Origin: Octopus vulgaris
Taxonomy: Eukaryota
Reading direction: 5' to 3'
NCBI GenBank assembly: GCA_951406725.2
Contig: OX597818.1
Location: 25,420,001-25,484,000 of the forward strand
DNA length: 64,000 nt
A program made the position numbers and the translations under genes. The notes beneath the pieces are model-generated. The model saw only the letters and a list, made by a program, of their open reading frames with translations. It was not told the DNA's origin and made no database searches. Of the stretch, positions 14,934 to 53,696 are shown one piece after another; position 1 is the first letter of the stretch, and every line of letters begins with the position of its first letter.

Positions 14934-15162
14934 CATCATTTGGTAAGCGAGGTTGGAAGATGTTTTATGCTTCATTAAGAGATATGATCCTTTATCTTCA
15001 CAAAGATGAGCATGGGTTCAAGAAAGGTAACTTAATTGAGAACTCTAGTAATGCCATCCGTATTCATCATTCCATTGCCACTCGAGCATCGGATTACACA
15101 AAAAAACAGCATGTATTTCGTTTGCACACATCAGATTGGGCTGAATATCTTTTCCAAACAAG
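14934..15162 (+). CDS. PSD: PSD/EFA6 exon (PH domain core)
   Basis: Long pyrimidine tract + cag; (T)SFGKRGWKMFYASLRDMILYLHKDE...IRIHHSIATRASDYTKKQHVFRLHTSDWAEYLFQT; donor gtatga. Confidence 0.95.
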
Positions 15163-15453
15163 GTATGATTTTCCCATTTTTGTTTATCTTCCTTTAATCC
15201 AGTAAACCATATTTAGAAAAAATAAAAATTTAATTAAAAAAACTTGGTAATTTTTATTAATTTATGTCAAAATTTATTTTCTGTTTATTTGAGAATATTC
15301 TGAAAAACATTTATTACAAATAGTCTGTAGCATCTGTTCTAAATGACACATTGGCAAAAGCCTATTTGGAAGTCATTTAACAAAGATTAAATTAAATCAG
15401 TTTCTCTACAAATATTTACTTTTCCTATCTTTTTGAATTCTCCATTCTTACAG

Positions 15454-15598
15454 TGACAGTAAAGAGCTCCAAGAGTGGATGGAAACTATTAATTATGTTG
15501 CAGCTAGTCTATCTGCCCCACCATTGCCTGGAGGGATAGGTTCTAAGAAGAAATTTCAGCGACCCCTTATGCCTTCTTCTTATACTAAGAAAAATCTG
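15454..15598 (+). CDS. PSD: PSD/EFA6 exon (PH end, proline-rich segment)
   Basis: tacag/ ... /gtatgt; (S)DSKELQEWMETINYVAASLSAPPLPGGIGSKKKFQRPLMPSSYTKKNL. Confidence 0.95.
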
Positions 15599-16042
15599 GT
15601 ATGTACATTTTTTTAATGATTACAAATTTAAATTGTAATCCAATGGGAGAGTTAGTAACTTCTAATTGTACTTTTAAGGTGTTTTAAAACATTTAAGCTT
15701 GTTGCTTTAGATGAAAAATTTGAAATTACTTTGGATTAATATTTTGTCCAAAATAATGATTTTATGTGCAATATTTTTCTTCTCCATCAGTCATGCCAAA
15801 GAAGGGAGAATTTAATTTCAAATTAAATATTTTAGTAGTATTAAACTTCCTAATTAACCTCAGAACAAATGTAAAGGAAATGAAGAATAAATAAACATTT
15901 TGAATAAAAACTTGATAATTTTTGGCTGAGAACTAGTGAATTACCTGTTTTATTTCATGTATGTATGATGCATTTTTTCTTATACCCAGCTTAAAAGCTA
16001 ATTTCTGTAATCGAGATTTTATTATTTTTAATTCCTTTTCAG

Positions 16043-16186
16043 AGTGAGCAATTAGCTCATCATCAAGAAAAAGTAACTCACCTAGAGAAAGAGTTACACG
16101 AACACAGGTTGTGTCCACCAGAAAAAGGCGCTAAAGCGCGTATAATCCATGATTATGTTGAAAAAGAGCAATTTTTAGAATCTGAG
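16043..16186 (+). CDS. PSD: PSD/EFA6 exon (coiled coil)
   Basis: ttttcag/ ... /gtaaat; SEQLAHHQEKVTHLEKELHEHRLCPPEKGAKARIIHDYVEKEQFLESE; 144 nt, phase 0/0. Confidence 0.92.
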
Positions 16187-17676
16187 GTAAATTATCTTTT
16201 GTTACTTTTAAATCAAGCCTGTTACTGATTACAGTTAAGTTGACTCTATTTACTACGTTCCTTTCATTATTCTTTTGCATCTAACATTTGGGTGTGTTTC
16301 ATTTAATTTGCATAAGAAATTGGTAGCGCTCTGATTTCAAAGTGTTTAAGGTATAAAACATGTAAGCATATTTTGAATATCAAAATTTTCAAAACCAATC
16401 AAACAGAATAATATAGGATATCAAGAATATAGAGAAAAGGTATCTTCATTGTTACTATATAATAACATATCTGATTGTCTTTATAGATATAAATTGTAAG
16501 GTCCAGTGTTTGGTACCCAGAGGTTTCTATTTTATTCAGTAGTCATTATATTGAACAACAAAGCTATCAAAATAATGTATTTTGTCTAAAAAGTGTACTT
16601 TATCAAAACAGAATATATATGCAAATCAAGTTTTCATGCAAAACTTGATCCATTTTTAGGCAACCTTACTTTAATCTATCCTTTAATCACTATTGCTCTT
16701 TTATCAAACACTTATTTCATGGCTGTGTGGTAAATAGCTTGGACAAGTGTCTTCTGCTATAGCCTTGGGCTGACCAAAGCCTTGTGAGTGAATTTGGTAG
16801 ACAGAAACTGAAAGAAGCCCATCATTTGTGTGTGTGTTTGTCTCCCCCACCATCGCTTGACAATCAATGTTGATGTGTCTACGTCACCGTAACTTAGCGG
16901 TTTGGCAAAAGGGACTGATAGAATAAGTACTAGGCTTACAAAGAATAAGACCTGGGATCAATTTGTTCAACTAAATTTTGTAAGGGAAAGATAACTGACT
17001 GATCATTCTCATTGCATTTACCCATACACATTTTATTAACCACATTAGGAGTAGAAAGTAAATTTCATACAGATGGGATTTGAATTCTGCCAAACTGAAC
17101 ATTTTAAATTATTCTGACAACTCTCACCTAAGTTATAACAAAGGGTGGTAGTGCAGATAGCAGAATTGGTAGGGCATTGCACAGGTTACCCTGTGGTATT
17201 TCATTACATCGCTTTACAACTTGTTCAAATCAAACACAGGCCTACTTTGCTTTTAATCTTCCCAAAGTTTATGAATAATTTGATGTAATTGTCTATTCTC
17301 TTTAAGATAGTGCCACAACTTGGCCACATTTTAATGACTGAAACCAATTAAAGTGACTGTTGGAAATATGAAGATTTCAAATCATAACAATGATTTGGTG
17401 AAAATGCTCGAAAAATTCATGTATTTTTGAATGAATCATTTATGCTACTCCTATTGCTGATTTTTTATGTCAGATGTTTTATATGCTTATTTTTCTAATT
17501 CTATGGATTGAATTGATTCAAAAAGGGATTTTCAAATGATTTGTATGCAATAATAAACACTAGTCATGTGAATTTGAATTCTCTAGATTCCAATATATAT
17601 TCTTTAACATGCATTTTTTTTTTAAAGTTTTTTCATTATTTCTAATCTCTTTGTTTTACTTATTTTTGCTTTTCAG

Positions 17677-17958
17677 TTAAAACGATTCCAAACCTACAAA
17701 TACCTTTTACAGTCAAAATTGAGTTCTTACAAAACAGAAGTTGAATCCTCATTAGTTGAAACTATTATTGGAGAAGATGATGAGACTGCAGATGATTGTG
17801 GAGATCGTTGTAGCCCTTCAAATACAACAATGTCGGTTGTCAGTGGAGCAAGCAGCAGCAACAAGAACATGAAACCAGTGCAGCGCAGTCTGTCTGATAG
17901 GTACAGTTACCGTGCTGCCATCTATCGTTCAGAGCATTTGGATTATGACCTTGTATGA
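17677..17958 (+). CDS. PSD: PSD/EFA6 last coding exon
   Basis: ttttcag acceptor; LKRFQTYKYLLQSKLSSYK...DRYSYRAAIYRSEHLDYDLV-TGA continues the coiled coil in frame. Confidence 0.9.
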   Translation, partial: LKRFQTYKYLLQSKLSSYKTEVESSLVETIIGEDDETADDCGDRCSPSNTTMSVVSGASSSNKNMKPVQRSLSDRYSYRAAIYRSEHLDYDLV

Positions 17959-34900: not shown

Positions 34901-36437
34901 TTCTAATTTGCAGTATAAACACACCTTTCATAAAACAAAAGAACTGAGTCAATTTTTGAATCAGTATATCAACACAAAATCTATTTTAATGAGCCTAGAA
35001 TATCTCAATTACTGAAAATCATATCAATAAATCCAGTGTTAATTTCGTATTTGTAACTTTTTTTTATTTCAATACTAACAATAACGTTTGTAGAAAATGT
35101 AACTGCATATCATGCAAATTAAACAGACATGTCTAATTTGAAAACATTGCAGTTCCAACAATTTTCTACCACCAAGGTATTTCATGTGATGATACACACA
35201 GACAAATACTTTAAAAATTTAACATTTAGTTAAGTTTATTTTAAATCGTAAAGATTTGAATGTGGACAGTACATTTTTTTGAGTTGCAACTTAAGCTGAT
35301 TGATTTACTTTGTACATCATCAAGCCCTTTTTAAATTTCTATATTTTTCAGTACTAATTAAATAAAAATAGCAACCAATGATATTGGAAGTTATCACAGG
35401 AAGAAAAATTCTAGATTTTTTAAAATTATTATATCGAATGAAGAGGAGAAAAACAATCAGGATATAATTTCGTGGCCCTTACAAATTTTAGGTTTACTAA
35501 ATAAAAGGGTATAATCTATGCAGTGGACTTAAATAGTGAGGTAAGATCAATGGGAATTTTCATTAATATGGGTTTATAAGTTCCCTTGCTTGGTGGAGGC
35601 CATTCCAGGATAGTGGTCCCAGAGACATGTGTAGAGCCAGCCAGGTCCATCAGTGCTTTCCATTGCTAGTAGTCCTGTGCCAGCCCCTCTGCATCCTGGA
35701 AAATCTTGGTGAAACTTCAAATTTTATATGAAAATATTAACGCAATACGCTATTTAGTACTAGTGTTTTATAACTGGCCTACCTATTCACCCTAATATGG
35801 TCTTGTTTTAAGCCTCTGTGGCATATGCCTCCCACACACCATAGCAATACAACTAAGTTGGTCTATCACTGACTATCAAAACATTTGAAAAAAATGGCCA
35901 AGCAACGCTACCACAAACTTTGAATGTAAAGTAATGCTGTGCATTATTTTATGTTGGAAATAAGATACTGTACAAATACGCATTGATTAAGCCAGGGGAC
36001 AGTACTGTTACTACTACAGTCCCTTAAGATTTGGTTTCACATTAAGTTTTCTTCCATAATGTTTCATAGAGCAATAGTTGCCTGAATTTCATCAGAATTA
36101 TTCATGTTCAAGCAATTCTTTTTAGAATCACCAATAAGTTATTTGACTAAATCGTCTGAATTCTTCATTCCCATAATCAATTATAGGCAAAAAGGAGTAT
36201 TGTATTAAAAACATGGTCCTGAAAATTACCATAAAATTAGCCAGAAGAATTTAGCACTAAGAATTCTAAAGAACCTATTACCAAGCAGTTGGAGAAAATA
36301 GTTTAGATTCTCAAGACAGACACTCTAAGTGTTACTCCAACTGCATAAAATGCTGTGACCAAGAAAAGCACACCTCGTCATAAAGATACATTTGCACAAT
36401 AAATAAAAACAAAACAATGGATAATTGTCAGTGGAGC

Positions 36438-36450: not shown

Positions 36451-36606
<156 letters not shown>

Positions 36607-36952
36607 TTAATTCCTCACAGAACTAGGGACAAACCACCTTTAATTAATTTCAAAATACATTTGCAATGTGTAAGGTGGAATTCATCTCAGTATACTCCTG
36701 GCAGTTATTCATTCAATGAAATGAAAATCTATGTTAAGGAACAATGAAAATCTACGACAGATTAACTTTTCTATTGACTCTGAACAAAGACCTGTTTACA
36801 ACTTATTTTAGCAAAGTATCCAAATTAGATTGATTATTATTACCTCTAAAATAGTTTCCAACAGAAAGACTGTAAATAAACTGCCATGGACAATATTTAA
36901 TCTTTTCCAATTATAAATTGAGAAATTAACAAAATATACAAATACTACTTAC

Positions 36953-37029
36953 CAATACGTCCTATCTTCATACCAGAACGAGCCAAAGCTCGGAGAGCTG
37001 ACTGAGCTCCAGGGCCTGGAGTCTTAGTT
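36953..37029 (-). CDS. RPS14: RPS14 coding exon 3
   Basis: [25 protein letters not shown]; AG/GT boundaries; 77 nt. Confidence 0.98.
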
Positions 37030-38037
37030 CTGAAATAATTATGAGAATGCAATTTGTTACAATGAATCACACCATCTTGAAAATGTTTACAACACAATTT
37101 AATAACATCAAACTTGATCTAACATTGTTATGCATGTGTTGGCTTAAGATCTGTCACACATGGCATAAATTCCCAATGGTAAATTAATGCATAGTTTTCA
37201 AACATACATTGTCTTTGAAGTAGATAATCCTTTTACCACTAAAATCAATTTCTACTATATTGTATACATTTTATATCACTCCTTTTGATTACACGTGTGT
37301 GTGTGTGTATATATATAAAATAACTTAAAATTCAATATTGCATTAAAAGTATTTACACCAGATACCACTGAAAATAGTTATTCCCTCTCTAGCTTCACAT
37401 ATAGCCTGCTATTCATGACATGTCAAAAAGCATAGATTCTATCTACTAGTTAGAACAGCAAGCTTACATAGTGAACAGTCAGAGATAGCGAATTTATTTG
37501 CAAGATAGCATTCGTGAATTTAAGTTAATTAGTGGAGAAAGCATCAAGACAAACAACTATGCAAGAATAATAATTCTAACCATTACATTCAGTACTCTAG
37601 AACCAATATTAATATAAGCAATTGCAATATATCAAGTAATCATTTGTTTGAGTACTGAACTATCTACCTGCTTATGAAACTGACAGTCTAAGTGACTGGG
37701 TATTCTAAATGCAACTCACAAGCAGAATTAGCATGATAGTGAGCCACGACAGCCTTTGAACAAATGCAATTCAACCATTGCCAAACTGTTTTCAGTTAAC
37801 CATTTCCGCTCACAAGGGTTGGGTCAACTCCAATCTCTGTGAAACCTGACCAAAAGCTGCACATTGGAATTGAACCCCAAGACTTCTTGAACCAAACAAT
37901 TTTTTTTATCATACATAGACACACACAACTAAACAATTTTCTTTTCCTTCAATTTAATGCTGTTTAGGCTGCAAATCTGCATCCTTTACAATACATAAAA
38001 AAATTCCACAAGGAAACAATCCGTATGATCTACTCAC

Positions 38038-38199
38038 TTGTTGCCTCCAGTAGCTCTAAGGCGAATATGAAGAGCTGTAATTCCAACTGTTTTGCACCTT
38101 TCTGCTACTTCTTGTGCAGCCAACATTGCAGCGTAAGGGGAAGCTTCATCTCGATCAGCCTTGACCTTCATTCCACCCGTCACACGAGCTATAGTTTCT
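38038..38199 (-). CDS. RPS14: RPS14 coding exon 2
   Basis: [53 protein letters not shown]; 162 nt. Confidence 0.98.
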
Positions 38200-38869
38200 C
38201 TGAAAAATATGAAAATGTACTGTAGGAACTATTTCAATAACAAGGCAGCATCAAACTCCAGTTTGTGACTGGAACAATGAAGTCAAACGAAATATACAAC
38301 AATGAAGATGATGTTCCAGATAGCACAGAAAAAATAAACTGATTTTTCTACATTTGTACTTTTGTTTAACATGAGAATCAAATGAATTTACACTCACATG
38401 GGGAATGCAAAGTGAATATTTTGCGACTTTTTGAGAATAAGATCATAAATTTTCATAGTTTTTTTTACTTATTTAAAAATAAGCATGAAAATTATTTGTA
38501 AGAAAGATAATTCTGATAATGCAACCACTTTCCTATCTAAGGGTTAATTTACCAACAAAATAAAAAACATGCTCAAGAATTTTATGTAATAGGCACTAGT
38601 TAAGATCCAGCAATCACTGTAAATCAATAGATAAATTCTGAGATATCAATGTACCACAATGCAAATAAATAGCTGCATCTGAGATTTCTTGTCAAGCCAC
38701 AAAATATCTCAAAGAATTATTTTATGACAAAATCTTATACTGTAAACTCAGAATAGACTATTTGGGAGTGTAGTAACAGAAAATTTTGCAAGCTTCTACC
38801 TACTAAGAATATGTGCAATGCAATTGAGTTGGAACAACACATTATTAGTTCGTTCATCATTGACAACAA

Positions 38870-40010
38870 TCAAGAACATCACAGAAGACAATGGGGCTCA
38901 GTGTGTTCGGCTGTGACTGATCCGTTTGATGCATGCTCAGAAGGCTCTGCAGGTCAGGAACTGTTGGTGTAGCTTCACCAGACAAGTTGGGTTTTTGCTC
39001 TTGATTCCAAAACTTATTCAGTGAAACCATGAATGTATGTTTTAAAGTGCCTTTTCTGTCCACCTTGCATGCACTTGCCTCCTGCCAGTTCACTGCAAAA
39101 GTCTTTTGGGGAGCTTCATTTCAGGCATTCAAACAAAGTGGCCAGTCCACTTGACTTTCGCTCTCCTCAGTAGAGTGTAAATATTTGGTATATCAACTCG
39201 AGAGAGGACCTCCACGCCTAGGACTTTTTCAACAGCTTTCTCAGGCAGTTTAGCTTTTTGACAGGATGTTTGTGGACCATCCAAGTCTTGCAAGCATACA
39301 TTTGCACAGACAGTACAACTACTTGGTACACAATCAACATGGTAGCTAGCCTAATGCCTCTCTTCTCTCACAATGATTCATGTAGCCACCCGAATGCTAA
39401 GTTTCCCATGGCAATGTGCATGTTGACTTCATTGTCAATGTTCACAGATCTGGAAAGTGTGCTGCCAAGGCACATGTACATAACCTTTCGGGTTCCCCTT
39501 GAACAGTGACTGTTGGCTCCATATATAACGTCTGAGTACTGATTGTGAGGCCAAAATTACTGCAGGCTGTGTAGTGTTGGAGAGAGCTGTGGGACAGTCA
39601 ACATGATCTTTATTCTGCACCAATTTCAGAAGGCCTCTGAGACCAGCTGTGAGGGCATTTGGAAGATCATGTTAAAAGTTCAGCAGCTTGATGAATTCAT
39701 TAGCATGGTGTGACAGTTCCATGATGGCATGCCCACTTGAGTATTGGGCAGTGGTGATTCTCCCAATGTGTTCCCAGTCACTAACAAAGTCAAGCAGGAC
39801 TGTGTATTCACAACTATGCTGTTTTCAGTGTTATTCGATGTTTTCTGCAGTAGCAAAACCACATCAAGATCACATTCAGGACGTGTAGCACTCGAGACAG
39901 GAGGCTACAAGCAAACACCAAAGTGGGAGAGAATTCTGTGCATGACTCTGCAGATGACTGCGCACTCAACATCACTACAGAGGCCCAAATGCAGCAGAGC
40001 GTTTTGATAA
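38870..40010. mobile_element. Old RTE/BovB-like LINE with 5' inversion
   Basis: Plus part FPVTNKVKQDCV...SADDCAL; minus part YL-GSTLSR...KWTGHFV-type C-terminal motifs. Confidence 0.7.
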
Positions 40011-40894
40011 CAGCAACTATTTTATATTTGTGCATTTTGTAAAATGTAAATTCAAGTTACATAATCCCTCTATATTTTTCTATATCCCAACTGTACTCTG
40101 ACCAACTCAACACAATTGTTGGCTAATATTGCAAGTTATGTCCCTTGCAGAAGTCATTCTAACATGCAACTTTAGTTACACAGACCTGGTTTCCTTCCTC
40201 TTCATTGACATACTTCATCTTGTTGCCAACTCATTTTTTCTAGGCATTTTTTATATGCCACTGGTTTACAAGAAAAACTATTGCTCAAGTGGTGTCAATG
40301 TGAAGACAATTTCTGTCCACAAAGTTTTGATGGACTGCAGGAAGCTATGAAAATTAGTTTGTTTCTATGACTTCATGCAAAAAAACTTATGAGTGATTTG
40401 CCTAAGTGCTACACAATGAAATCTAACTCAAACCACATGGTTTTGAAGTGAACTTGTCTCTTGGATTTTCTGTTACATGGACATTTATATAACACTACTC
40501 TGTAATTAATTATGGTGGACTGCTGAGTTCATAAGAGATTACCATGATAGCCACAGAATTCTGTGAATCAATCTCAAATCAGTGTATGTGTAATAAGAAG
40601 CTTACTTCCCAACCTCATGGTTCCAGACTCAGTCCCACTGCATGGCACATTGGACGAATGTCTTCTACCATAGACTTGTAAGTGGATTTGGTAGACAGAA
40701 ACTGGAAGAAGCCAGTTGTATATATGTATATATATATATATATATCTGTCTTTGTCTCATTAATACTTGACAACTGGTGTTAGTGTGTTTACATCCCTGT
40801 AACTTAGTGGCTCAGCAGGCTTCAAAAAAAGTTCTGGGGTCGATTCCACCCTTCAAGGTGATGCCAATATGGCCATAGTCAAATACTTAATCAT

Positions 40895-40938
<44 letters not shown>

Positions 40939-41983
40939 TATTTCATCGTATGTATATACACACACACACACATCCACAATTACATCTAGAGTAAATTCAC
41001 TTCAATATTACACTCAGTCCTTTCACACAACTTACCAAAACAAGTTCTGAGATAGGGTTAATTTTTTGTTTCAATTTTTAACATTGATCTTCATTTTCAC
41101 TTATTCTCAAAGTGAGGGGAAAGGGATAAGTTCTTAAGTCTTTTTTCCATACAGGGAAAGAAAAGAAAAAAAACCTATTTGGTGAGCTTTGATTTTTTAA
41201 GCATCAAGTTACTTCAGTTTTAAAACAGATAAGGAAAGACAAATGTCAGAGGAAGACAAACAACAACCAATAAAAAAAAAGATAAAAAGCTATGAAAACC
41301 AAAGATATCTGAAGAGGTTGTACAAATTTCCTACCAAATATAATAAAACTCAGTAATTAACATAATAGCTTACGCAAGGCCATATGAAAGACAGAACATC
41401 ACAAAGCAAAAACATTATGAATATGAAGAACCTAGAACATACAAAATAAAAAAGGCAAAATTTAAAAAAGAAGAATCATGCAAAAATATAGGTAAATAAT
41501 TGCCACATCATTATATCTATAACCACTATTCCATGCTTGCATAGGTCAAACAATTCAATGAAGCAGATTTTCTATGGCTGGATGCATATCCTGTCATCAA
41601 ACCACACCTGTTTGCAAGCATAGGTTTTCCTTATGGTGGGACATGTTTTCACAGGTAGTTGGAAACAAAGCACACCATTTTTATGATGATGACATTTACA
41701 ACCATCAGGTAATGTCAAGACAATGGAACACATGCACAATGAGCTTCTTTCAGTTTCTATCTCTTAAATCTAACCATAGGTGTTTGGTCAACCCAAGACT
41801 ATAGCTAATGACACTTGCCCAAGGTTGTTATACAGTAAGACCAAACCCAGAAACATGGTATATTCAGCAGTGACATTGGTTGGATTTTATATGATTAGTA
41901 AGTGAATGCATCATGTTTTGTGTGTACATACAAATACAAAGGCAAAAAGCAGCCAAATTCGAGGGCAATCACCAAAGGTTTTA

Positions 41984-42571
41984 CTGTAAAAACTCATGTA
42001 ATTTGCATACCTGTGTAATTTATGCAGGTGATTTTTAGGATATGTAAAATTCACACCCAAAAGTTTTCAGAATTGCCGGCCAGGGAGAAAAGGTTTTCAA
42101 TTTATTTGTATTTAGCATAATTTCACTTATGATTAGATATTATTAAACTTTATTTTACATTTCTTGTCAAGAGACTAAGTCTGATCTTTAGCATACTGTT
42201 GTATGCCTTCTCAAATCACTATCATAGGAAATCATCAACATCATTTAACCTCCACTTTCCATGCTGGCATGGGTTGGACTGTTTGACTGAGGAATGTGAT
42301 TACCAGCAATGTAATGGTTTTAGTAAATTTATAGAGAAAAAGGAAGCATTATACCACCCAACATAAATAAAGTCAGCTTCATTATATTTAAGCCCTTATT
42401 TTTTCTGTAAAAACCTACTCTGACATTAAATGAGTCAACTTTTGGTACAAATGTTTGTTTTGTAAATCTTTATGAAAAAAAAAGAAGAAAAAAAGGCCCC
42501 AAAAAATTTGTTCATGTAATTTACGTACTCCTAAATTTTATTTTTGTGTTAAATTACATGGCTTTTTATGG
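41984..42571. mobile_element. Tc1/mariner-superfamily MITE (TA TSD); partial inverted copy ~300-514
   Basis: TA-CTGTAAAAACTCATGTAATTT ... AAATTACATGGCTTTTTATGG-TA; internal sequence shared with 300-514. Confidence 0.7.
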
Positions 42572-43383
42572 TATATGTAAACTTAAGCAAATGGTATGGA
42601 GAAGAGAGGTAGTGATGCAATGGTTCCAAATGTTAACTAGCGCCAGTTTGGTACTTCCTAAATTTGTGTCTAGAGTGGATAATTTGGGATAGTATTGCAC
42701 AAGCTAAAAACTTTGATTTTCCAATATTGGCAAACCATGTAGAGAACAGGTTTCAGACAACTTGTAGGTGCAAAAAATAGCTTCAGTGTATTTAGTGCAG
42801 GTGTTGCAATGTTTTTAAAGGTGGAAAATACAAAAACACATGTTGTGTTTTCTCAAGTACCCATAGAAAGCGCATTAATTCATTTTGCAACTGACAAAGC
42901 TACAATTAAGCTGCTGATTATTCTTACTACTTTGTTACAAAAGTATATATGTTGCACGAAGGATAACAATGTACCAAGCCACTGTGGCACAGTTATCTGC
43001 ATGCGCACAGATATATGTGGAGCCTGCAAGTCACAACAGGTCACCCAAAGACAGCAACCTCAATTAAACAGTAATACAGGGTAGTGTTATTACAAGAAAA
43101 TATACCCAGCGCAAAATGTAAAACAAAGCCAGCAGGTTTTGTGCTATATGCAAGATGATGCAAGCAATGAAACTTGCTCAACCCATGTAAGAATGGAAAC
43201 TTAAGCATAAAACTAATTCCTTACAAAACATCTTGAAGTGTCAGTCTGTGCTTAACTCAAAACCAACAGCAAACTTTAAAGATGCAGAAATTGTAAGTAG
43301 CATGTTTATCCAACATGGGAAAGTGGTAATATTCATAAATATCAACAGTAATGCAATCCCATTAGAATGTAAGTTAAGTTTTA

Positions 43384-44560
43384 TGAGGGTGGGCCGAAAA
43401 GTACATAGGCTGACTATAAAGGAGTGATGATGAAGCTATAAAATCTTACAAGCATTAATTTCAACCGTCTTATTAATAACTGCAGTTTCCTTCCAGATCA
43501 GTGCTTTTCAACAATTTTGCTGGAGCGGAACCCCAAGGAAACATTCCACTGGCTCAAGGAACCCCTGTGCAATAATTTAATAGTCTTATGCACACATATC
43601 TGCACAGGAGAATTTAAAATTACTGCCGATTTTAGCAGTTTTGTAACTTCTTGCGGAACCCCGGTTGAAAACCACTGTTCCAGATAAACAGTTGTAAAAA
43701 GAAGTCTTCAAAAGTAACTAGTAGTGACTTCTCTTGAAAATGAATAAAATGTGACACCGTGGTGTTATCAAGTACCTGCAGAAAAAGGACATTTGTGCCA
43801 ACATGATTGCTACATCAGGGGATAATGCTCCAGCTTTATCAACAGTGCAAAAGTAGGCAGGTGAATTTAGGGGGTACAGGGAAAATCTTGAAGATGACCT
43901 AAGGTTTGGACATTCTGCAACTGCCACCACATGATGATAGATGACAGGCAATTGACAATAAATCAAACAGCCAATCTATTAGCATTTCTTGTGAGTTGAG
44001 ATAATAAACAACCCTACTTGGTAGTTGCCATGTCTTTTGACAATTATTCAAGACTGTTTCAAGCAGATCCAGGATGTGTTGGCCTCTTTACTTTGAACCA
44101 GAGACAATCCATGCAGTGGAAACACCCCCTCCCATCTGCCCCAAAAGGCCAGTCATTCCACCTGCAGGGGTGTTGGGCTTCAGTTTTTTGGGATGCAAAA
44201 GGCATTGTGCTTATTGACTATCTTCAAAAGGGCCACACCATCAAAAGAGTATTATGCCAACTTGTTGCAGCAGTAATGGAAGGTCATCAAGACCAAATGC
44301 CCAGGAAAATTGAACAAAGGGTTCTTGTATCATCAGGACAATGCTCCATCACACAAATCCTTGGTTTCAATGGCTGTTGTGCATAACTGCAGCTTTGAAC
44401 AGGTTGACCACTCCCCCTATTTTGATTTGGTCCCATCTGACTACCACCTGTTACCCAACATGAAAAAACACTGGGAACCAGTATCAGTGATATGTCTACT
44501 GTTGATGACTTTTTTGACTGACAGGATGAAAACTTCATGAACGGTATCCAAGCACAAATT
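43384..44560 (+). mobile_element. Degraded mariner transposon
   Basis: QSMQWKH, SVFWDAKGIVLIDYLQKG, HQDNAPSH and HSPYFDLVPSDY (from HPPYSPDLAPSDY) motifs. Confidence 0.85.
43499..43677. mobile_element. hAT MITE nested in the mariner
   Basis: CAGTGCTTTTCAAC...GTTGAAAACCACTG TIRs; perfect 8-bp TSD TTCCAGAT (43491-43498, 43678-43685). Confidence 0.88.
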
Positions 44561-44747
44561 TCAAGACTATTTTTAAAAAATTGAAGTTACTAACAAATAT
44601 TGATACTCTTCTTGAGCCTGATTAATTCAAAACAATGTCAGAGCATTGCATTTGACAAAGTAAGCTTAATGCCAAAGGGCTAAAGAAATGGAAATTGTGC
44701 TTAGACCAACTCAAGCATGTTGGTGATTCTCTTCACTTTCAGTTTTC

Positions 44748-45014
44748 AGCATTCTTTCGATATAACCTGGCAAAGTCAAAACATTTCACTTCAGGTATTT
44801 CTATGGTATACAGTTCGATTCTGTTTTCTGCTTGGAAATTTGCAGATTTTACATAACACACATGAAACAGGTAAGAACAAATATGCAAGGCTTTTTTTCA
44901 AGTTTAAAATGAGAGACATTGCTGGCATAATTTCATTATATCTATACTCCACAACCCACGGAAATACCCAAAGTGAAATGCTTTGATTTTGTCGAGTTAT
45001 ATCGAAAGAATGCC
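44748..45014. mobile_element. MITE M1 (GGCATTC...GAATGCC TIRs, 8-bp TSD; Merlin-like)
   Basis: Long imperfect TIRs; TSD CAGTTTTC at 44740-44747 and 45015-45022. Confidence 0.85.
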
Positions 45015-45053
45015 CAGTTTTCTGTTGGCCATAAATCTCTTAACACCTAATTA

Positions 45054-45132
45054 CAGGACATCAGCTCTCCAAGGTGATTGGACCTATCATTGAGAAACAT
45101 AAGGTACCAAGTTGTTGTCATCATATGTCCTG
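45054..45132 (-). ncRNA. SNORD55: C/D-box snoRNA, SNORD55/U55(U39)-like, copy 1
   Basis: CAGGACA-t-ATGATGA(C box)CAAC...TCACCTTGGAGAG-CTGA(D box)-TGTCCTG. 7-bp terminal stem; 12-nt guide complementary to conserved 28S UCUCCAAGGUGA; sense strand in the RPS14 intron. Family name is from recalled similarity (ATGATGACAAC...ACCTTGGAGAGCTGA). Confidence 0.85.
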
Positions 45133-45352
45133 ATGCATGGCCTTCAATAAATATCTAGACAAAATAGTTTAAAAAATACTATGCAACCAAATGATACAAA
45201 CTCAATGTTCGTAAACTATTAAAGCAACCTATATAGACTTGAGTGTCAACTTTTACACTCGCATAATTTCGTTTCGTTGGGATGACTTTTTACAGAACTA
45301 TTATCAGTGCATACACACAACTAGCAAAGTCGACAGGGAAATGTAGAATTAA

Positions 45353-45651
45353 CCCTTTCATTACCAAACCGCCTGAAAAAAATTTTGGTTCATGTGACCA
45401 AGCCCCCTCCCCCCAACCGTCCATAATCACCTATTCATATTTAACCCTTTAGCATTCAGATTATTCTGTAAAATGTAAAGCTTATGTATTCACACCATGT
45501 AAAATTAATCTTGCATCATTTCATGGCTTTGAGATTTCAATGATGTGATTATTTTTAAAATGACACAATAAGGTAGCTATGAATGACCATATCTGACTAG
45601 TTTGAACATAAAATAGGTAGAATATTTTGGCCGGTTTAAACACTAAAAGGG
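45353..45651. mobile_element. TTAA-specific (piggyBac-type) non-autonomous element; duplicate at ~48732-49033
   Basis: TTAA-CCCTTT...AAAGGG-TTAA; the empty TTAA site is visible in the third repeat unit (49628-49631). Confidence 0.8.
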
Positions 45652-45656
45652 TTAAG

Positions 45657-45911
45657 GGCATTCTTTCGATATAACGTGACAAAAAACATTTTACTTCAGG
45701 TATTTCCGTGGAAGCAAATAACAGTTCGATTCTGTTTTCTGCTTGGAATGCAGATCTTATATACACACAATACAGGTAAGAACAAATATGCAAGGCTTTT
45801 TTAAAATGAGAGACATTGCTGGCATAATTTCATTATATCTATACTTCACAACCCACGGAAATACCCAAAGTGAAATGCTTTGATTTTGTCGAGTTATATC
45901 GAAAGAATGCC
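45657..45911. mobile_element. MITE M2 (chimeric M4/M1 copy)
   Basis: Left flank GAATTAAG (split by a TTAA element), right flank CAGTTTTC. Confidence 0.85.
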
Positions 45912-45950
45912 CAGTTTTCTGTTGGCCATAAATCTCTTAACACCTAATTA

Positions 45951-46029
45951 CAGGACATCAGCTCTCCAAGGTGATTGGACCTATCATTGAGAAACATAAG
46001 GTACCAAGTTGTTGTCATCATATGTCCTG
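45951..46029 (-). ncRNA. SNORD55: SNORD55-like snoRNA, copy 2
   Basis: Appears identical to copy 1 (offset 897 nt). Confidence 0.85.
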
Positions 46030-46186
46030 ATGCATGGCCTTCAATAAATATCTAGACAAAATAGTTTAAAAAATACTATGCAACCAAATGATACAAACTC
46101 AATGTTGGCAAACTATTAAAGCAACCTACATAGACTTGAGTGTCAACTTTTACACTCGCATAATTTCATTTCGTTGGGATGACTTA

Positions 46187-48656
46187 GTTAGTTAGTTAGT
46201 TAATTTGGCTCATAAGCAAATAGCAAGGCCATGTAGGGGGACATGGAGTTAAGTACAGGGTGGTGTTCATGTAAAGAGTTCAGGCCACTTGAGGTCCAGG
46301 GAGGCTTTGAACAAAGCGGTCGTCGGCATCTTCACCATCTCGTCTGGCAGCTTGTTCCACGGATCCGCAACCCGGACGGAGAAAGCTCCTCTCCTTCGAT
46401 TGAGATGAAATCGTCGCAGGTAGAGCTTTTCGGAATGACCCCGCAGCAGGAGTGAAGAACAGCTCTTTCGAGAGGTTACACTTCCCGCTTATGATGTTGT
46501 GGGCGAGAATGAGATCACCACGGCGGCGGCGTTTTTCAAGAGAACAAAGGTCGAGCGTCCTCAGCCTTTCTTCGTAGGACAAATTTTTGAGACCATGAAC
46601 CATGCGGGTAGCCAGCCTCTGGACTCTTTCGAGGTGCTGTATGTCTTTGAGGAGATAAGGAGAAGAGGCTTGAATCCCATACTCCAATATGGGTCTCACC
46701 AGCGTGACATAGAGTGGCAGGAATATGGCTGCTGTGAGCATTCCGAATGAACGTCGAATCAAAAACAGAATTCCGCGCGCTTTGTTGGCAGCATGGACGC
46801 ACTGGGCCGAAGGCGAAAAGGAGGAATCCACCAAGATACCCAGGTCCTTTACCTGATCGGTCCTCTCCAGCAGCAGACGACCCGGCTCGAAATCAAGTTG
46901 AGTTGCAGGAGTAGAGCCGACAGGCAGATGACAGCACTTTGATACGTTCAGACACAGGTCCCAATTGTTAGACCACTTCCAAATTTGGTGGAGGCATCGA
47001 CGAAGATCCTCTATACTACCGCGAGGAGCGACCAGTTTGATATCGTCGGCAAATAGAAGGGTGTGTTGCGTGAGGTCGTCGGGCAAGTCATTTATGAAGA
47101 CTAAGAACAACAAGGCCCAAGCACTGAACCTTGAGGCACGCCACTGCTCGCACTGGAGACGTCGGACCGCGAACCATTAACTTGAACTTGGAAGGAGCGA
47201 TCTGAGAGGAAGGCACCAACCCATCGTACAATATCCGGATGGAAACTATATGCTTGAAGCTTGACAAGTAGTAGGCGGTGGTTTACCGAGTCAAAAGCTT
47301 TGGCAAAGTCCAATAAAACGATGTCAACAGTATCACTATCATCGAGGATGCGCGTCACCAATTCTTCCATTACTAGTAAGTTGGTCAAGCATGATCTCTT
47401 CGGCACGAAGCCGTGTTGGGAATCAGTGATCGAGGCTGTGTTTAGGAGGTGGAGCATCATACTTTTCTTAAGGATGGTTTCGAACATCCTGCTGATTATT
47501 GATGTAAGGGAAACCAGTCGGTAGTTAAGCGGGTCTTCGCGGCTCCCTTTCTTGAAAATTGGGCAGATTATCGCTGTTCTCCAGTCTGCAGGTATAACAC
47601 CCGTCGCCAACGACATATTGAATAGTCGTGTTAAGGGCTCGCAGATGACCGGAGCCAACGCTTTGATAACCCGTGGGTGTATGCCGTCAGGGCCGTGACC
47701 CTTGTTGACATCGAGGCCTTGAATAACACGCTTGACTTGGTCCCGCGTGATGATCAATCGAAGCATTGGAGGTACCGATCTATCAAATGGAGGGGGTTCA
47801 CGACCATCATCTGGTTTGAAAATAGTTGAAAAAGCCTCGGCAAATAATTGACTCTGTTGATAAGGGTCCTCAATCGATACGCCTGTTGAGTCTACCAACG
47901 TTGCAATCTGGTTGTTCAAGCGGGAATTCCGCTGGACATGGGCAAAGAAGGTTTTTGGATTGCTACTGGCATTTGCCGCGATTTTGTATTCATAACTGAA
48001 GCGTTCTTTCTTTTCAATTTTCAAGGCTCGGTCTCGTTGAGTTTTGTACACCTCAAAAGCTGCAGTCGAATCCAGCCCAAGCAATATCTCTGAGTCGACG
48101 TTCTCGTTCAACCTTCTTCGTCACCCAGGGCTTGTGTTTCTTCCTCTTGGGAAGTCCAACGGGAACTGCCTGGTCAGTCAAACAGATTACATATGCTTTG
48201 AGGGATGACCATAGTTCGTCAACTGAGGACAACGTCATCAGGGAACGCCAGTCCAGAAGCGCAGAAGCCTCGGTTAGAATTTCAAGATTAATTGCAGAGA
48301 AGACTCTACGTGGCAGCGAAGTAATCGTGGGCGTGGAAAAAGTTGTGTGCATGACGAACTTCAGGACCGCATGATCACTCTTGGCAAGAGGGGCGCACAC
48401 AGATACGTCTGACACTGATCTTGGATAGCGGGAGAATACCAGATCTAGCATAGATGGCTGCTGCCCAGACCGATATTCAACATGTTGCAATAGAAAACAA
48501 TCTTCAGCCACGTCAAGAAGGGCCTGGCCGAACCGGGAAGATGTTGTACAAATTGATGCGGGCCAATCGATCGTGGGAGCGTTGAAGTCGCCTAGTACCA
48601 AGCAGTCATGCGAAGCTGAAACGAATCTTATCGCTTCGAGTAGATGAGCATATATT
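46187..48656 (-). mobile_element. CR1-clade LINE, 5'-truncated, frameshifted ORF2 (APE end + RT)
   Basis: VLGDFNAP, LDLVF, KGHGPDGIHP, QHGFVPKRSCLTNLL, LDFAKAFDSVNH, GVPQGSVLGP, LFADDIKL, LERVQRLATR across ORFs 48053-48601, 47101-48111 and 46280-47113; (TAAC)n tail; TSD GATGACTT(A) at 46178 and 48657. Confidence 0.93.
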
Positions 48657-49038
48657 GATGACTTATATTTATGGAACTATTATTAATGCACACACACGAA
48701 TAGAAAAGTCGACAAGGAAATGTAGAATTAACCCTTTCATTACCAAACCGCCTGAAAAAAATTTTGGTTCATGTGACCAGCCCCCCCCCCCACACCAACC
48801 GTCCATAATCACCTATTCATATTTAACCCTTTAGCATTCAGATTATTCTGTAAAATGTAAAGCTTATGTATTCACACCATGTAAAATTAATCTTGCATCA
48901 TTTCATGGCTTTGAGATTTCAATGATGTGATTATTTTTAAAATGACACAATAAGGTAGCTATGAATGACCATATCTGACTAGTTTGAACATAAAATAGGT
49001 AGAATATTTTGGCCGGTTTAAACACTAAAAGGGTTATG

Positions 49039-49293
49039 GGCATTCTTTCGATATAACGTGACAAAAAACATTTTACTTCAGGTATTTCCGTGGAAGCAAA
49101 TAACAGTTCGATTCTGTTTTCTGCTTGGAATGCAGATCTTATATACACACAATACAGGTAAGAACAAATATGCAAGGCTTTTTTAAAATGAGAGACATTG
49201 CTGGCATAATTTCATTATATCTATACTTCACAACCCACGGAAATACCCAAAGTGAAATGCTTTGATTTTGTCGAGTTATATCGAAAGAATGCC
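49039..49293. mobile_element. MITE M3 (duplicate of M2)
   Basis: Near-identical to M2, same hybrid flanks. Confidence 0.85.
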
Positions 49294-49332
49294 CAGTTTT
49301 CTGTTGGCCATAAATCTCTTAACACCTAATTA

Positions 49333-49411
49333 CAGGACATCAGCTCTCCAAGGTGATTGGACCTATCATTGAGAAACATAAGGTACCAAGTTGTTGTCAT
49401 CATATGTCCTG
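49333..49411 (-). ncRNA. SNORD55: SNORD55-like snoRNA, copy 3
   Basis: Appears identical to copy 1. Confidence 0.85.
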
Positions 49412-49632
49412 ATGCATGGCCTTCAATAAATATCTAGACAAAATAGTTTAAAAAATACTATGCAACCAAATGATACAAACTCAATGTTCGTAAACTATTA
49501 AAGCAACCTATATAGACTTGAGTGTCAACTTTTACACTCGCATAATTTCGTTTCGTTGGGATGACTTTTTACAGAACTATTATCAGTGCATACACACAAC
49601 TAGCAAAGTCGACAGGGAAATGTAGAATTAAG

Positions 49633-49903
49633 GGCATTCTTTTGATATAACTCGACAAAATCAAAACATTTCACTTCGGGTATTTCCATGGAAGCAAACA
49701 ACAGTTCGATTGTTTTCTGCTTGGAAATTTGCAGATTTTACATACACACATGAAATAGGTAAGAACAAATATGCAAGGCTTTTATTCTTCAAGTTTAAAA
49801 TGAGACATTGATGGCATAATTTCATTATATCTATACTCCACAACCCATGGAAATACCCGAAGTGAAATGTTTTAATTTCGTCAAGTTATATCAAAAGAAT
49901 GTC
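49633..49903. mobile_element. MITE M4
   Basis: TSD GAATTAAG at 49625-49632 and 49904-49911. Confidence 0.85.
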
Positions 49904-51137
49904 GAATTAAGGTTCAAGGTTTCTATAAACCCCTTTACTACTTTTTCTGTTGAAATAAACTTTCTTTGCTTTAATTCAATGAAGAAAAAAAGTCATTAAA
50001 CTGATGTTTGGAACATTATTAAACATGAAATTTTGAAAGATAATTTAAATTACATAAAAAAACAGAAAGTTTGTGTCATATAACCAGTCTCGGCTGCTAA
50101 GTAAAAAGAGTTAAATTATCCTCTTTCTATTCAAATGACAAATTAAATCGTGAAAAATTATAGCTAACTCAAAATCAAGAACCCATTTAGATGTGAAATT
50201 ACACAAAAGCCATTAAAATATCACCGAGACAACTGTTCAAATCAACATAAAACGGTCCAGCTTATTTTGGCTTTTGAGCACTGGTCCCAAATTATGATAC
50301 CAACCCAGCCAAAACCGCCTCTGCCTCTGTAGTACAAATGTCTTGTTTTCATAAGTATTGAATTAAAATCTTTCACCAAACCTTTGTCACAATTTATGTT
50401 CCTAACACTAGCTTAATGATAACTAAGTTCTTTTATTAAATTCTTTGTTCTATTTAAAATTAATTGAATGAAACAGAGCATCTCAAAATAAATACGGTAA
50501 CGAAAGGGTTAAGAAAACCTGACCACAACCAAATGGATAGACTGCACATGACTCAACAGACTGACTTGATATAACTCATGATATATAAATAAGTAATCAC
50601 TTTACCCAGTTTATCAAATCCCTGAGAAATTTCTGAATTCAAAAGGTATTAAACAATCACATTTTCAATTCTGTTGCTAATATGAAGTGTGGATGTACCA
50701 CTACAAATTCTCCGCGTTTTTACCCATGACGACATCAGCAAGTATTGTGATTCTTTAGGCCTTCCCTACTCTCAACAGGTTGGAAGCCATGAATTACCAA
50801 CGAGATCTTTTTTTCGCTCTCCTTTAAGAATTCACTGTATCACCAGTGTTAATGTTATCAGCCATACGCTATTTCAGGTTAGACTTCAAGGAAAAAGGTT
50901 ATGGAAGTGGTGATTGATGGCTGACACGGCTTTATTGTAAATTTTGGGATGGTTCGCGATATAATTGTGCACACGCACAAAAACCAAAAGTATTCGGACC
51001 ATGAAGGTTTGAAAATTCAGTTTCGAAATATCATCTTCTGAATACGTAAGTATTATTCTGGGATTTAAAATCACGAAGATTCCAAAAATGAGGCCTCCGA
51101 AATGTATTTTCTCGTTATAAACTTAGGAATTCAAAAG

Positions 51138-51202
51138 AAGACATCAGCTCTCCAAGACATCGCAAAACACAAGGTATCAAGGTTGTTGTCATCACATATC
51201 TT
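51138..51202 (-). ncRNA. SNORD55: SNORD55-like snoRNA, divergent short paralogue (copy 4)
   Basis: AAGATA-t-GTGATGA CAACAACCTTGATACCTTGTGTTTTGCGATGTCTTGGAGAG CTGA-TGTCTT; boxes and terminal stem intact; ~60 nt downstream of the exon donor. Confidence 0.78.
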
Positions 51203-51262
51203 GATTTACAAGCACTAACAATATCTTGACGTAAAAAATATATATACAAAGAAATCACTTAC

Positions 51263-51411
51263 TTGCCTGAAAGGTCAGTAACATGCACAAATGTATCATT
51301 GAAACTAGCAAAAATGTGGGCTACGCCGAAAACATTCTCTCCTTCCAGCACTTGTGGGCCGAGCGATACTTGCTCTTGCTGCTGTTGCGTCTTTCCTTTA
51401 CGTGGAGCCAT
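51263..51411 (-). CDS. RPS14: RPS14 first coding exon
   Basis: [49 protein letters not shown](K). Acceptor lies 1 nt before the ATG. The four exons sum to 456 nt = 151 aa + stop. Confidence 0.98.
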
Positions 51412-52055
51412 TCTGAAAGCAGATTTCATTACAATAAGGCGGGTGTTAGGAAACAGAAATAATAAACATTTGCATTGAATAAGGGATAACCAAATCAGAG
51501 TATTAGTTTCTCAATAAATTTCCCGATGATGTGTTTCACATACTGGTGAATATACAGTTCACCAACAGAATTACAAAACATGTGGAACAAAGATTGACTT
51601 AATCTAACATCAGTTTTGATTAGCACAAAATAGAATATTAATATCTGGCGGGCAATTCCCTCGGTATATTTCATTAGTAGACACCCTATAACACTGGCGA
51701 GTTAAATGGACATAAAGTTGTTTAAAAATATGCCTTATCTTCAAAAACTAAGTTAAATTTCAAATCACACGATAAAAAATACCATCACAACTTAAAATTT
51801 ACATAACACTATAATACACTAAAGGTTAAAATAAATCTAAATAACCAAGAACGTGTAGAAATAAAATCAATTTAAAATTAGACCATCATGTGTTTGGAGC
51901 AAAAAAACAACAATTTCTAGCAGTGAGATACGCAAAAGTACTTTATTCAGTGAGCAATTAGTTACAGTGTATATTAAAAATATAATTTATAATTTAAATG
52001 TGTTAAATAAAATAAGATGAAAGCAGATTAAATACAGCAAACAAAAAACACATAC

Positions 52056-52088
52056 CTTATACCAATATGACTAAGACTCAAAAGGAAG
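52056..52088 (-). promoter_or_regulatory. RPS14: RPS14 non-coding exon 1 with TCT/5'-TOP start
   Basis: Minus strand reads CTTCCTTTTGAGTCTTAGTCATATTGGTATAAG/GTATGT: polypyrimidine initiator typical of ribosomal protein genes followed by a donor site. Confidence 0.8.
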
Positions 52089-52200
52089 TAGTAGATGAGA
52101 ACGAGAACTTACGAGGTCCTGTAAATCTCGTCAGAAAGTGAGATTTTGTCATCTTCCGGTTTGATGAGAAAAAAAAGGTGGGTTGGGGATAGTAGAAGTA
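52089..52200. promoter_or_regulatory. Putative bidirectional promoter RPS14/ZSWIM8 with ETS-type site (CTTCCGG, ~52153-52159)
   Basis: CpG-containing, TE-free segment between divergent genes; CCGGAAG on the minus strand. Confidence 0.55.
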
Positions 52201-53039
52201 AGAGTAAAAGAAGCTAGAGTGCGTTTATCTTTTTTTTCCCCGAAATATACCGAAAAATTTACCGATTGCTACCGAAGTCACTCGATGCATTTGGAATAGT
52301 GTTGTTATTGTGAGTGCGAAAGATACTAGTTCCCCTTTTATTTGCTAAACATTTTACCATCACGCAACGCTTTGCTTCGGGACAAAATTATGGCTTATCA
52401 TCTAGTTTATTCGTGTTATATCATTTCTTCCTTTAACATCCATTGATTATCAGTGTTTCTGTCTAGTAAAATTTGTCTGCTGATTGACGAAGCGAAGATA
52501 AACTTAGCTGAAGTAAACCTTCGCTTTGTATTTCAAGAAGTCAGTGTTCCTTTGTATATTCGTGTAGTGCGCTCCCTCTTTCTCTCTCTCTCTCTGTCTG
52601 TCTCTCTCTCTCTCTCTTCCTCTCTGTAATGTATGTTTTGCTAACCACATATTTAAGTATTGCAACTTCATAGGCCTACTGTGTGACCCATATCAAAACC
52701 AATTTTTTGTTAAACAAGATTAATGGTTCAAACTACGGGCACCGACTTTAAGAAACTTAGCTAAAACCCTCTATTATCTTAATTTGACATCTGTTTTTCT
52801 CTATAACCAGTTTTATCTTTTTCTATCTCACTCTATTTATAGATACTATTTTTAATCTAAATAATATCGACCTGTGATATACATTAACACAGTCATCATT
52901 CACTCACAGCCTCCTATAAGAGAGGCTGGCTACCTGGTAAGCATTCTCCAGGGGGGGAATATCCGAGAAAGTCATCCTCTACATTCGTAACTTGACGTCT
53001 ATAAACTACAACACCCTCTACTCTCGGGTCCACCAAAGT

Positions 53040-53232
53040 ATGCACTTTATGTTTGACTGGGAGACGGAAGCCGATCATATCTCATTTGATGACAGTGACC
53101 GTTTCGAGGAGGATTCTCTGTGCTCGTGGAACAGCGAGCCCGAGAGTCTGTGCAACAACTGGAGAGGATGGAAGAGGCAAAATGGAGGCCAGGCTTTTCC
53201 AGCGCAGCAGCAGCAACAGCAGCGAACCACTG
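53040..53232 (+). CDS. ZSWIM8: ZSWIM8 (Dora/EBAX-1) first coding exon
   Basis: MHFMFDWETEADHISFDDSDRFEEDSLCSWNSEPESLCNNWRGWKRQ matches the characteristic ZSWIM8 N-terminus (SFEDSDRFEEDSLCS..SE.ESLC.NWRGW); phase-1 donor G/GTAAGA. No further exon recognised in the window. Confidence 0.92.
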
Positions 53233-53696
53233 GTAAGAAAACAAATAAAATACATTGAGAATTTTCTCCAAGCTTACACTTTATGTTTTTCTATATTTTA
53301 AATCTATGCATATGTGTAAATATATATATTTATGTTTATTTATATGGTCTACTGAACCTCGCACATCGTATATGTATATCTAATGACTAAATTTAGGTAT
53401 ATGTGTACTCATTGTCAATTGTATGTGTAGCTGTCAGGAGTGCATATATTCTCAATTTTTCATTATCCAAAAATATTCAACGAAATCAGAATACACGAAC
53501 TGAAATTTTACCTACAAATGAATATTTAGCTGATTATTTAGATCACTATATTGTTTATCACTTTCATTATATCGGAATACTCTTTCCAATTTTTTTTAAA
53601 ATTTCTTTTGCATATATGTTGAAGATAAAGAAAAGCCAGCGTATAAACAGTTATGAATTTTGCATAAATGATCTAATGCAGATGTGACATGATCAT

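Follow-up and report, generated by a model that had tools for sequence, protein, structure and literature searches.

A cluster of U39/U55-like box C/D snoRNA copies in an RPS14 intron of Octopus vulgaris and its likely origin by recombination between MITEs

How do several small nucleolar RNAs (snoRNAs) come to share one intron, and how would they be released from it? The question is raised by a 64-kb stretch of AT-rich eukaryotic DNA from Octopus vulgaris (contig OX597818.1, positions 25,420,001 to 25,484,000; hereafter the window, in whose coordinates all positions are given), where four box C/D snoRNA copies, A to D, lie within a single intron of the ribosomal protein gene RPS14, separated by miniature inverted-repeat transposable elements (MITEs). 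The original prediction, an annotation made from the letters of the window, took this arrangement to need endonucleolytic cuts or hidden exons, or else to yield long non-coding transcripts with snoRNA ends, called sno-lncRNAs. Its observation is confirmed here and its interpretation partly supported. We hold, with somewhat more confidence than doubt, that the four copies are U39/U55-like, that the three identical ones arose by unequal crossing-over between two flanking MITEs, and that they are matured by ordinary splicing, debranching and trimming, with one mature guide per lariat. Papers are cited by PMC identifier.

Four box C/D copies in one RPS14 intron

A search for RTGATGA..CTGA on both strands of the whole 64 kb returned 22 matches, of which four (copies A, B, C and D) pass the filter applied, a terminal stem of 6 pairs or more. 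Under the same rule, 100 dinucleotide-matched random windows averaged 0.27 matches and never exceeded 2, a comparison in which B, C and D are one sequence three times and hence no independent draws. The 13-nt guide-plus-box-D pattern common to the Rfam family discussed below occurs four times against 0.01 expected.

51137..51203, minus strand: snoRNA copy A; C to D 51144-51195, 52 nt (box C 51195, box D ends 51144); 6-pair stem
49333..49411, minus strand: snoRNA copy B; C to D 49340-49403, 64 nt (box C 49403, box D ends 49340); 7-pair stem, U39/U55-like guide
45951..46029, minus strand: snoRNA copy C; C to D 45958-46021; identical to B
45054..45132, minus strand: snoRNA copy D; C to D 45061-45124; identical to B

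RPS14 lies on the minus strand and its four coding exons join into a 151-aa frame that equals the final 151 residues of the Octopus vulgaris RPS14 record, residues 1-50 being 100% identical and the remaining ones agreeing by eye; given this match, the limits of the host intron are right. It is the second intron of the gene when a short upstream non-coding exon is counted.

52058..52090 (limits approximate), minus strand: likely non-coding first exon of RPS14, with a pyrimidine-rich start; scored donor AAG/GTATGT, donor intron base 52055 by script count
51263..51412, minus strand: coding exon 1 (coding 51263-51411, ATG at 51411)
38200..51262, minus strand: host intron, 13,063 nt, GT-AG ends
38038..38199, minus strand: coding exon 2
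36953-37029, minus strand: coding exon 3
36451-36518, minus strand: coding exon 4

We take the start of the non-coding first exon to be 5′ terminal oligopyrimidine (5′TOP)-like. The RPS14 record itself (P0003, 191 aa) carries a 40-residue N-terminal extension, placed by eye at 52058-52365 on the minus strand, upstream of and within this exon, and is likely an over-extended gene model.

All four copies are sense to RPS14 and inside this one intron. Under the definition in the PMC11028025 supplement (at least two snoRNA genes in one host intron) they form an intronic snoRNA cluster, subject to unannotated exons in the gene model. Copy A is 67 nt from the 5′ splice site, and the distances from box D to the 3′ splice site are 12,944 nt (A), 11,140 nt (B), 7,758 nt (C) and 6,861 nt (D), in agreement with the claim that all exceed 6.8 kb. 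Boxes C (RUGAUGA) and D (CUGA) are perfect in 4/4 copies. The flank duplex of B, C and D, with its 7-pair terminal stem, reaches -15.7 kcal/mol (4/1000 shuffles as good), whereas that of A is weak (-5.2 kcal/mol; 224/1000 shuffles as good). The best internal D′/C′ pairs carry three mismatches in total in both the A and the B type, and the C′-to-D spacer is 19 nt in B versus 9 nt in A. There are thus four C/D copies, as had been predicted, but of unequal standing: B, C and D are a single sequence in triplicate, and A is a shorter form whose stem and guide are weaker.

A relaxed scan of 36451-52100 for further C/D snoRNAs in the other RPS14 introns gave nine matches, with a stem of more than 4 pairs only in A-D. 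H/ACA snoRNAs were covered by Rfam scans only, and none reached the gathering score in the window. As for sense poly(A) signals (AATAAA), there are none between B and D and three between A and B.

Family, guide and predicted target

No part of the 64-kb window matches Rfam at the gathering threshold. At a relaxed level B, C and D match snoZ101 (RF00358, clan CL00057) with 37.7 bits against a gathering score of 44 (E 6.4e-4), and copy A scores 18.6 bits (E 0.53); for this sub-threshold score the copies are termed U39/U55-like and not Rfam members. The guide of B, C and D, UCACCUUGGAGA, is the same as the snoZ101 consensus at 12/12 positions (2-13). The conserved D-box guide of the clan, CACCUUGGAGA, is present in B, C and D, and A retains CUUGGAGA only; the plant D′ guide has no match in the octopus copies. 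Clan CL00057 unites human U55/U39 (28S Cm2791) with Arabidopsis AtU55 (Cm1850) (PMC3511168). The earlier assignment to the U39/U55 (SNORD55) family is thus borne out at clan level, though at 37.7 bits against 44, and B/C/D is likely a mollusc U39/U55 orthologue below the Rfam cut-off.

The fifth position from box D in the B-type guide is G, so the D+5 rule gives the same 28S cytidine that the original prediction had named. The predicted 2′-O-methylation target would be this one cytidine, at the site listed as human Cm2791 and Arabidopsis Cm1850. We looked for a link to the octopus 28S helix 88 (H88) break described in PMC13321053 and rejected it: none is visible, the available text of that source containing neither "snoRNA" nor "methyl".

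The octopus copies share with U39/U55 and plant snoZ101/AtU55 the box C/D layout, the 12-position D-box guide and the predicted target site. They differ in sitting in RPS14, four per intron and below threshold, whereas the vertebrate copies are single in RPS8 introns: SNORD55 (RF00157) is listed as mono-intronic in RPS8 for human and mouse (PMC11028025 table), as the original prediction had stated for human, and chicken U39/U55 is in RPS8 intron 1 (PMC2653536). RPS14 does not appear as a snoRNA host in the part of the PMC11028025 table examined. The change of host, which had been singled out as a difference from vertebrates, is nothing out of the ordinary, host switching being a general rule for snoRNAs (PMC3511168).

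Copy A as an older paralogue

No difference separates B, C and D within the RNA or in the adjoining 85 nt or more of flank; the identical stretches, RNA and flanks together, span 451 nt (B-C), 403 nt (B-D) and 260 nt (C-D). C departs from B 85 nt 5′ of box C, and D departs from B 111 nt 3′ of box D. Between A and B identity is 83% over 66 aligned positions with a 13-nt gap, and gapped alignments of the flanks give 65% and 73%. The 5′ intron flanks of A and B are weakly alike (z 2.2, 26/1000 shuffles) and the 3′ flanks are not (z 0.6). Copy A keeps boxes C and D and guide positions 1-9, the 8 positions after position 1 being identical to B, and positions 10-12 could pair only as G-U (three G-U pairs). 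A C/D guide is expected to pair with its rRNA over some 9-10 positions or more, 5′ of box D. In vitro, an 8-pair guide duplex gave no modification, and RNAs without C′/D′ were able to guide, these boxes being dispensable (PMC7229835); weak stems are a mark of snoRNA pseudogenes (PMC12309372).

None of the 11 mismatches between A and B falls within the 19 box and guide columns (P 0.016, an inflated significance since A was found by those boxes), and in the stem one pair is swapped from G-C to A-U. Both the mismatch-free columns and the swapped pair argue against simple decay. The most fitting reading of copy A is an older paralogue that has weakened and may still function, if poorly.

Unequal crossing-over between MITEs

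Four copies of a MITE, 255-271 nt long with inverted ends of ~57-60 nt, alternate with the snoRNAs. They are short, have terminal inverted repeats and 8-bp target duplications (M1 and M3) and contain no transposase, as expected of MITEs, and no further copies of them occur in the window. A frame across M2a has no protein relative at E 0.01, which is weak evidence on how widely the MITE is dispersed. The elements of the array are as follows, with a strand assigned to the long interspersed nuclear element (LINE).

49633..49903: MITE M3, parental insertion; 8-bp target duplication GAATTAAG at 49625-49632 and 49904-49911; 57-pair helix
49039..49293: hybrid MITE M2b; its left flank is the M3 target site, its right flank CAGTTTTC that of M1
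48728..49037: TTAA-flanked non-autonomous element, copy 2; absent from unit 3, which has the empty site
46186..48656, minus strand: LINE, frameshifted and 5′-truncated, ~2.5 kb; 8-bp duplication GATGACTT (46178-46185, 48657-48664); short tandem-repeat tail
45657..45911: hybrid MITE M2a; no difference from M2b in 252 aligned positions
45349..45655: TTAA-flanked non-autonomous element, copy 1; 99% identical to copy 2; the best acceptor-like sites of the C-D interval lie in it
44748..45014: MITE M1, parental insertion; 8-bp target duplication CAGTTTTC at 44740-44747 and 45015-45022

M2a and M2b carry M1 sequence on the right and M3 sequence on the left, with the left flank split off by the TTAA-flanked element, which by its ends we take to be piggyBac-like. 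Such hybrid target-site flanks at both internal MITEs are likely the footprint of unequal crossing-over between M3 and M1, an event that would have duplicated the snoRNA between them.

The degree of divergence differs along the unit. In the right halves of the MITEs, M1 and M2 agree at 99/100 positions but match M3 at only 91-92/100; the left halves of M1, M2 and M3 all differ (10-11 mismatches and 5-6 gaps in ~150 nt), and for a 72-nt piece to the right of the LINE identity with its counterparts is 87.5%. Among units, the segment that bears the snoRNA has 98.5-100% identity. The divergence of the left halves and of the 72-nt piece indicates that the first duplication was not recent, while the near-identity of the snoRNA-bearing segment and of the M1/M2 right halves points to later homogenisation or re-duplication. 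The LINE, in the middle unit, separates B from C and retains recognisable domains (RVT_1, E 7e-18; Exo_endo_phos_2, E 8e-9). Altogether, of the 5,766 nt between 44748 and 50513, 4,357 belong to mobile DNA.

A history that accommodates these features would begin with an old local duplication giving the A and B types, followed by the independent insertion of two MITEs on either side of B. Crossing-over between these MITEs would then have duplicated the unit, with ~7-12% divergence surviving in the left MITE halves and in the 72-nt piece beside the LINE; the TTAA element and the LINE would have inserted next, and a later exchange would have left the snoRNA-bearing part 98.5-100% identical and brought the copy count to three. 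If so, the locus records cleanly the birth of an intronic snoRNA cluster. No description of a MITE-generated snoRNA array, or of this locus, was found in a literature search that was mostly without subscription papers and is limited evidence.

Compatible with any account of processing, but bearing on copy number, is the possibility that two haplotypes of two copies each, one with and one without the LINE, were joined in the assembly into a chimera that shows a third B-type copy. B equals D over 403 nt and M2a equals M2b, and the order of elements is that expected if two two-unit alleles, one free of the LINE and one bearing it, were joined out of register; a real unequal crossover, however, gives the same order. 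Moreover, C differs from B and D at 4/274 positions, the MITE of D has its own left half, and the two TTAA elements differ at three positions and two gaps. We hold such a chimera to be improbable, and even then A and at least two B-type copies would be real, given the diverged hybrid MITE.

Other mobile sequences were seen in and around the intron. Another TTAA-ended non-autonomous element is present in two copies in opposite orientation, 85% identical, at 50292-50513 (between A and B) and 5005-5224. A decayed mariner-type transposase remnant lies 3′ of D at ~43400-44560 on the plus strand (Pfam Transposase_1, E 1e-9 for 44000-44383), and at ~38870-40010, plus strand, a GC-richer stretch in the intron resembles a decayed retroelement, with no Pfam match for the two frames tested. 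The MITEs contain strong donor-like CAG/GTAAGA sequences at 44870, 45775 and 49157 on the plus strand, opposite to RPS14; harmless here, they could exonise in the other orientation.

Precedents for intronic snoRNA clusters

The original prediction treated the arrangement as exceptional, which the supplementary table of PMC11028025 does not support. Among its rows classed intronic_cluster (60 of the 324 in the part examined, places 1-30 and 61-90, the source of the cluster facts given here), three C/D paralogues are hosted by Drosophila RpL28 (Or-CD11a-c), ten H/ACA paralogues by Drosophila Arpc2 (Psi18S-525a-j), Psi28S-3405a-d by Drosophila Hrb98DE and three C/D genes by C. elegans top-2 (K12D12.6-8); the table gives class and host, not spacing or processing. 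As in these clusters, several, often paralogous snoRNAs share one invertebrate protein-coding or ribosomal-protein host intron. The octopus copies differ in being C/D, 0.9-3.4 kb apart and separated by transposons, with a legible recombination footprint and with B, C and D identical. A four-copy C/D cluster is, on this comparison, uncommon but not new. The 0.9-kb unit could serve as a reporter for the release of more than one snoRNA from one animal intron, though its value as a test case is modest: clusters in flies are better studied, and mature RNAs from B, C and D would be indistinguishable.

Release from the intron

Standard maturation consists of splicing, debranching and trimming up to the bound core proteins (PMC5519232, PMC10557570), and long stems can permit splicing-independent assembly of the snoRNA-protein complex (snoRNP) (PMC5519232). 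The strong stem of B, C and D fits such assembly (PMC5519232, PMC10234308) and, far from the branch point, would let it run independently of splicing. Whichever copy assembles would be trimmed by exonucleases, giving one mature guide per lariat, and unassembled copies would be degraded with the intron. This simplest route was missing from the options first offered for releasing several copies, among which the sno-lncRNA logic does hold: an intron carrying two snoRNPs ends up as a sno-lncRNA if it is not cut between them (PMC11028025, PMC4234469). Should two copies assemble, the snoRNA-ended by-product would measure ~0.98 kb (C-D), 3.5 kb (B-C) or 4.4 kb (B-D), and 1.9, 5.3 or 6.2 kb when starting from A; that duplication is a source of such by-products is a published expectation (PMC11028025 section 6). 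New processing machinery is thus unlikely to be required.

Remoteness from the 3′ splice site, a feature to which the original prediction drew attention, is hardly a difficulty. Among expressed human snoRNAs, most have 100 nt or more between them and the branch point, and as a predictor of expression this distance came 23rd of 34, although C/D RNAs that target rRNA tend to be near it (PMC10234308). Expression of only one copy had also been named as counting against a multi-copy release, but since B, C and D are identical, this is unreadable from small-RNA data. Mature species of 70-75 nt would be expected from the B type and of ~60 nt from A, the one copy that could be distinguished.

Four points weigh against one guide per lariat by ordinary trimming. 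Its weak point is that incomplete assembly is assumed: efficient assembly on every copy would yield mainly sno-lncRNA and little mature guide, or would call for a cut. H/ACA clusters are described as the usual arrangement in Drosophila (PMC3089462), and invertebrates may cut between copies by a general activity. The kept boxes and guide core of A, with its stem swap, suggest that two copies were under selection in one intron for some time. Lastly, relaxed splice scans give weak exon candidates in every interval between copies.

Taking up the second point, an endonuclease of a general invertebrate pathway could free several mature copies per lariat independently of the hairpins, as is presumed for the Drosophila clusters. 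Introns there hold up to ten paralogues, ribosomal-protein hosts included (PMC3089462, PMC11028025 table), and XendoU-type, splicing-independent release is described in Xenopus (PMC10557570). Yet fly clusters are mostly H/ACA, with fly C/D loci mostly one per intron (PMC3089462), and the octopus intron sequence indicates no cut site. We regard general cutting as unlikely, though it is the best placed of the alternatives.

That the main product is instead a snoRNA-ended long RNA containing MITE hairpins, plus the LINE for B-C and B-D, is likewise unlikely, ranking below general cutting and above the assembly chimera. The stated prerequisite, two snoRNAs in one excised intron, is present; the C and D boxes of B, C and D are perfect and their stems strong, and the pathway operates in a ribosomal-protein gene, mouse RPL13A (PMC4234469). 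The cluster resembles the known loci (the Prader-Willi syndrome (PWS) locus, mouse RPL13A SNORD33-SNORD34 and SLERT) in having at least two C/D snoRNAs in one spliced intron, with predicted lengths of 1-6 kb. It differs in being known from DNA alone, constitutive rather than dependent on alternative splicing, and spaced by mobile DNA, and the known cases in the papers cited are mammalian (PMC11028025, PMC4234469). Only 19 such RNAs were reported across three mammals (PMC4234469), and the octopus spacer, being transposon sequence, has no sign of function.

A strict exon scan, a crude consensus match requiring a donor score of at least 7 (true RPS14 donors score 7-8) and a TTYAG acceptor, a rule that would itself miss 1/4 true acceptors (8 pyrimidines), returned two intronic candidates, of which the first (50566-50632) falls in the A-B interval and the second 3′ of D, against 10 on the antisense strand; the B-C and C-D intervals gave none. 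Loosening the donor rule brings the number to 5 (A-B), 11 (B-C) and 3 (C-D), and the other 6.8 kb of the intron then yields 37, so the density between copies is that of the background. No recursive splice site (YAG/GTRAG) occurs in the intron, and a decayed RPS14 exon within the repeat unit was rejected, similarity being no greater than in shuffled sequence (z -0.1 global, -0.6 local). Cryptic exons, for which the TTAA elements are the most plausible source, might still place B, C and D in separate introns of a minor isoform bound for nonsense-mediated decay (NMD): acceptor-like sites lie at 49025, 48752, 45643 and 45373, and the relaxed candidates include ones of 35, 166 and 212 nt that end at TAG/GTGATT, the best of them in the TTAA elements. 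Splicing choices of a host transcript are known to control sno-lncRNA versus snoRNA output (PMC4234469). However, the donor TAG/GTGATT scores 6.5 against 7-8 for the four true donors, and none of the 35, 166 and 212 nt preserves the frame. This reading is very improbable.

The MITE hairpins were the cleavage sites first proposed, and cutting of them by a ribonuclease (RNase) III-type enzyme (Drosha/Dicer-like) would give entry points for trimming between copies. They are strong structures, whose first 65 nt take part in 55-57 end-to-end pairs (z -9.5 to -13.4 versus mononucleotide shuffles, and -7.5 versus dinucleotide shuffles for one hairpin in context). There is one per interval, and for B, C and D it begins ~45 nt 3′ of box D. 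This supplies the spacer stem that Rnt1 cuts in yeast (PMC10557570), and the likeness to the yeast Rnt1/RNase III polycistronic clusters is a double-stranded stem between successive snoRNAs. In the octopus, however, the stems are MITE inverted repeats in an animal intron, and their arms enclose ~150-200 nt rather than a short loop. Recombination between two flanking MITEs automatically leaves one MITE per interval and fully accounts for the hairpin placement, which is therefore no evidence of cleavage. The intact target duplications of M1 and M3 also indicate that the snoRNA was in the intron before the MITEs, without need of them, and our literature search found no animal precedent. Cutting of the hairpins is accordingly more doubtful still than cryptic exons.

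Most plausibly the hairpins are passengers and substrates for ADAR editing, young DNA transposons being among the most A-to-I-edited elements in a survey of 22 metazoan species including O. bimaculoides (PMC9989829). Least probable of all is their co-option, in which an RNase III-type cut per stem would free several mature snoRNAs and an ADAR-blocked cut would leave a stable, transposon-filled sno-lncRNA; the MITE would then have caused the array and would also act as a switch, sensitive to editing, between snoRNA and sno-lncRNA.

Matches of the MITEs to MIR821 (36-40 bits versus 249) were rejected as generic long hairpins. Pairing of neighbouring MITEs to loop out B was rejected too, the minimum-energy fold leaving each MITE self-paired.

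Neighbouring genes

About 1 kb from the RPS14 start, and head-to-head with it, the first coding exon of another gene lies at 53047-53235 on the plus strand. It has no Pfam match, and its peptide presumably resembles the ZSWIM8 N-terminus. Downstream of RPS14, an apparent last coding exon or exon fragment was read by eye at 35570-35700 on the minus strand. Exons of a PH-domain gene lie at 14879-17955 on the plus strand (Pfam PH_9, E 3e-27 over 14879-15202).

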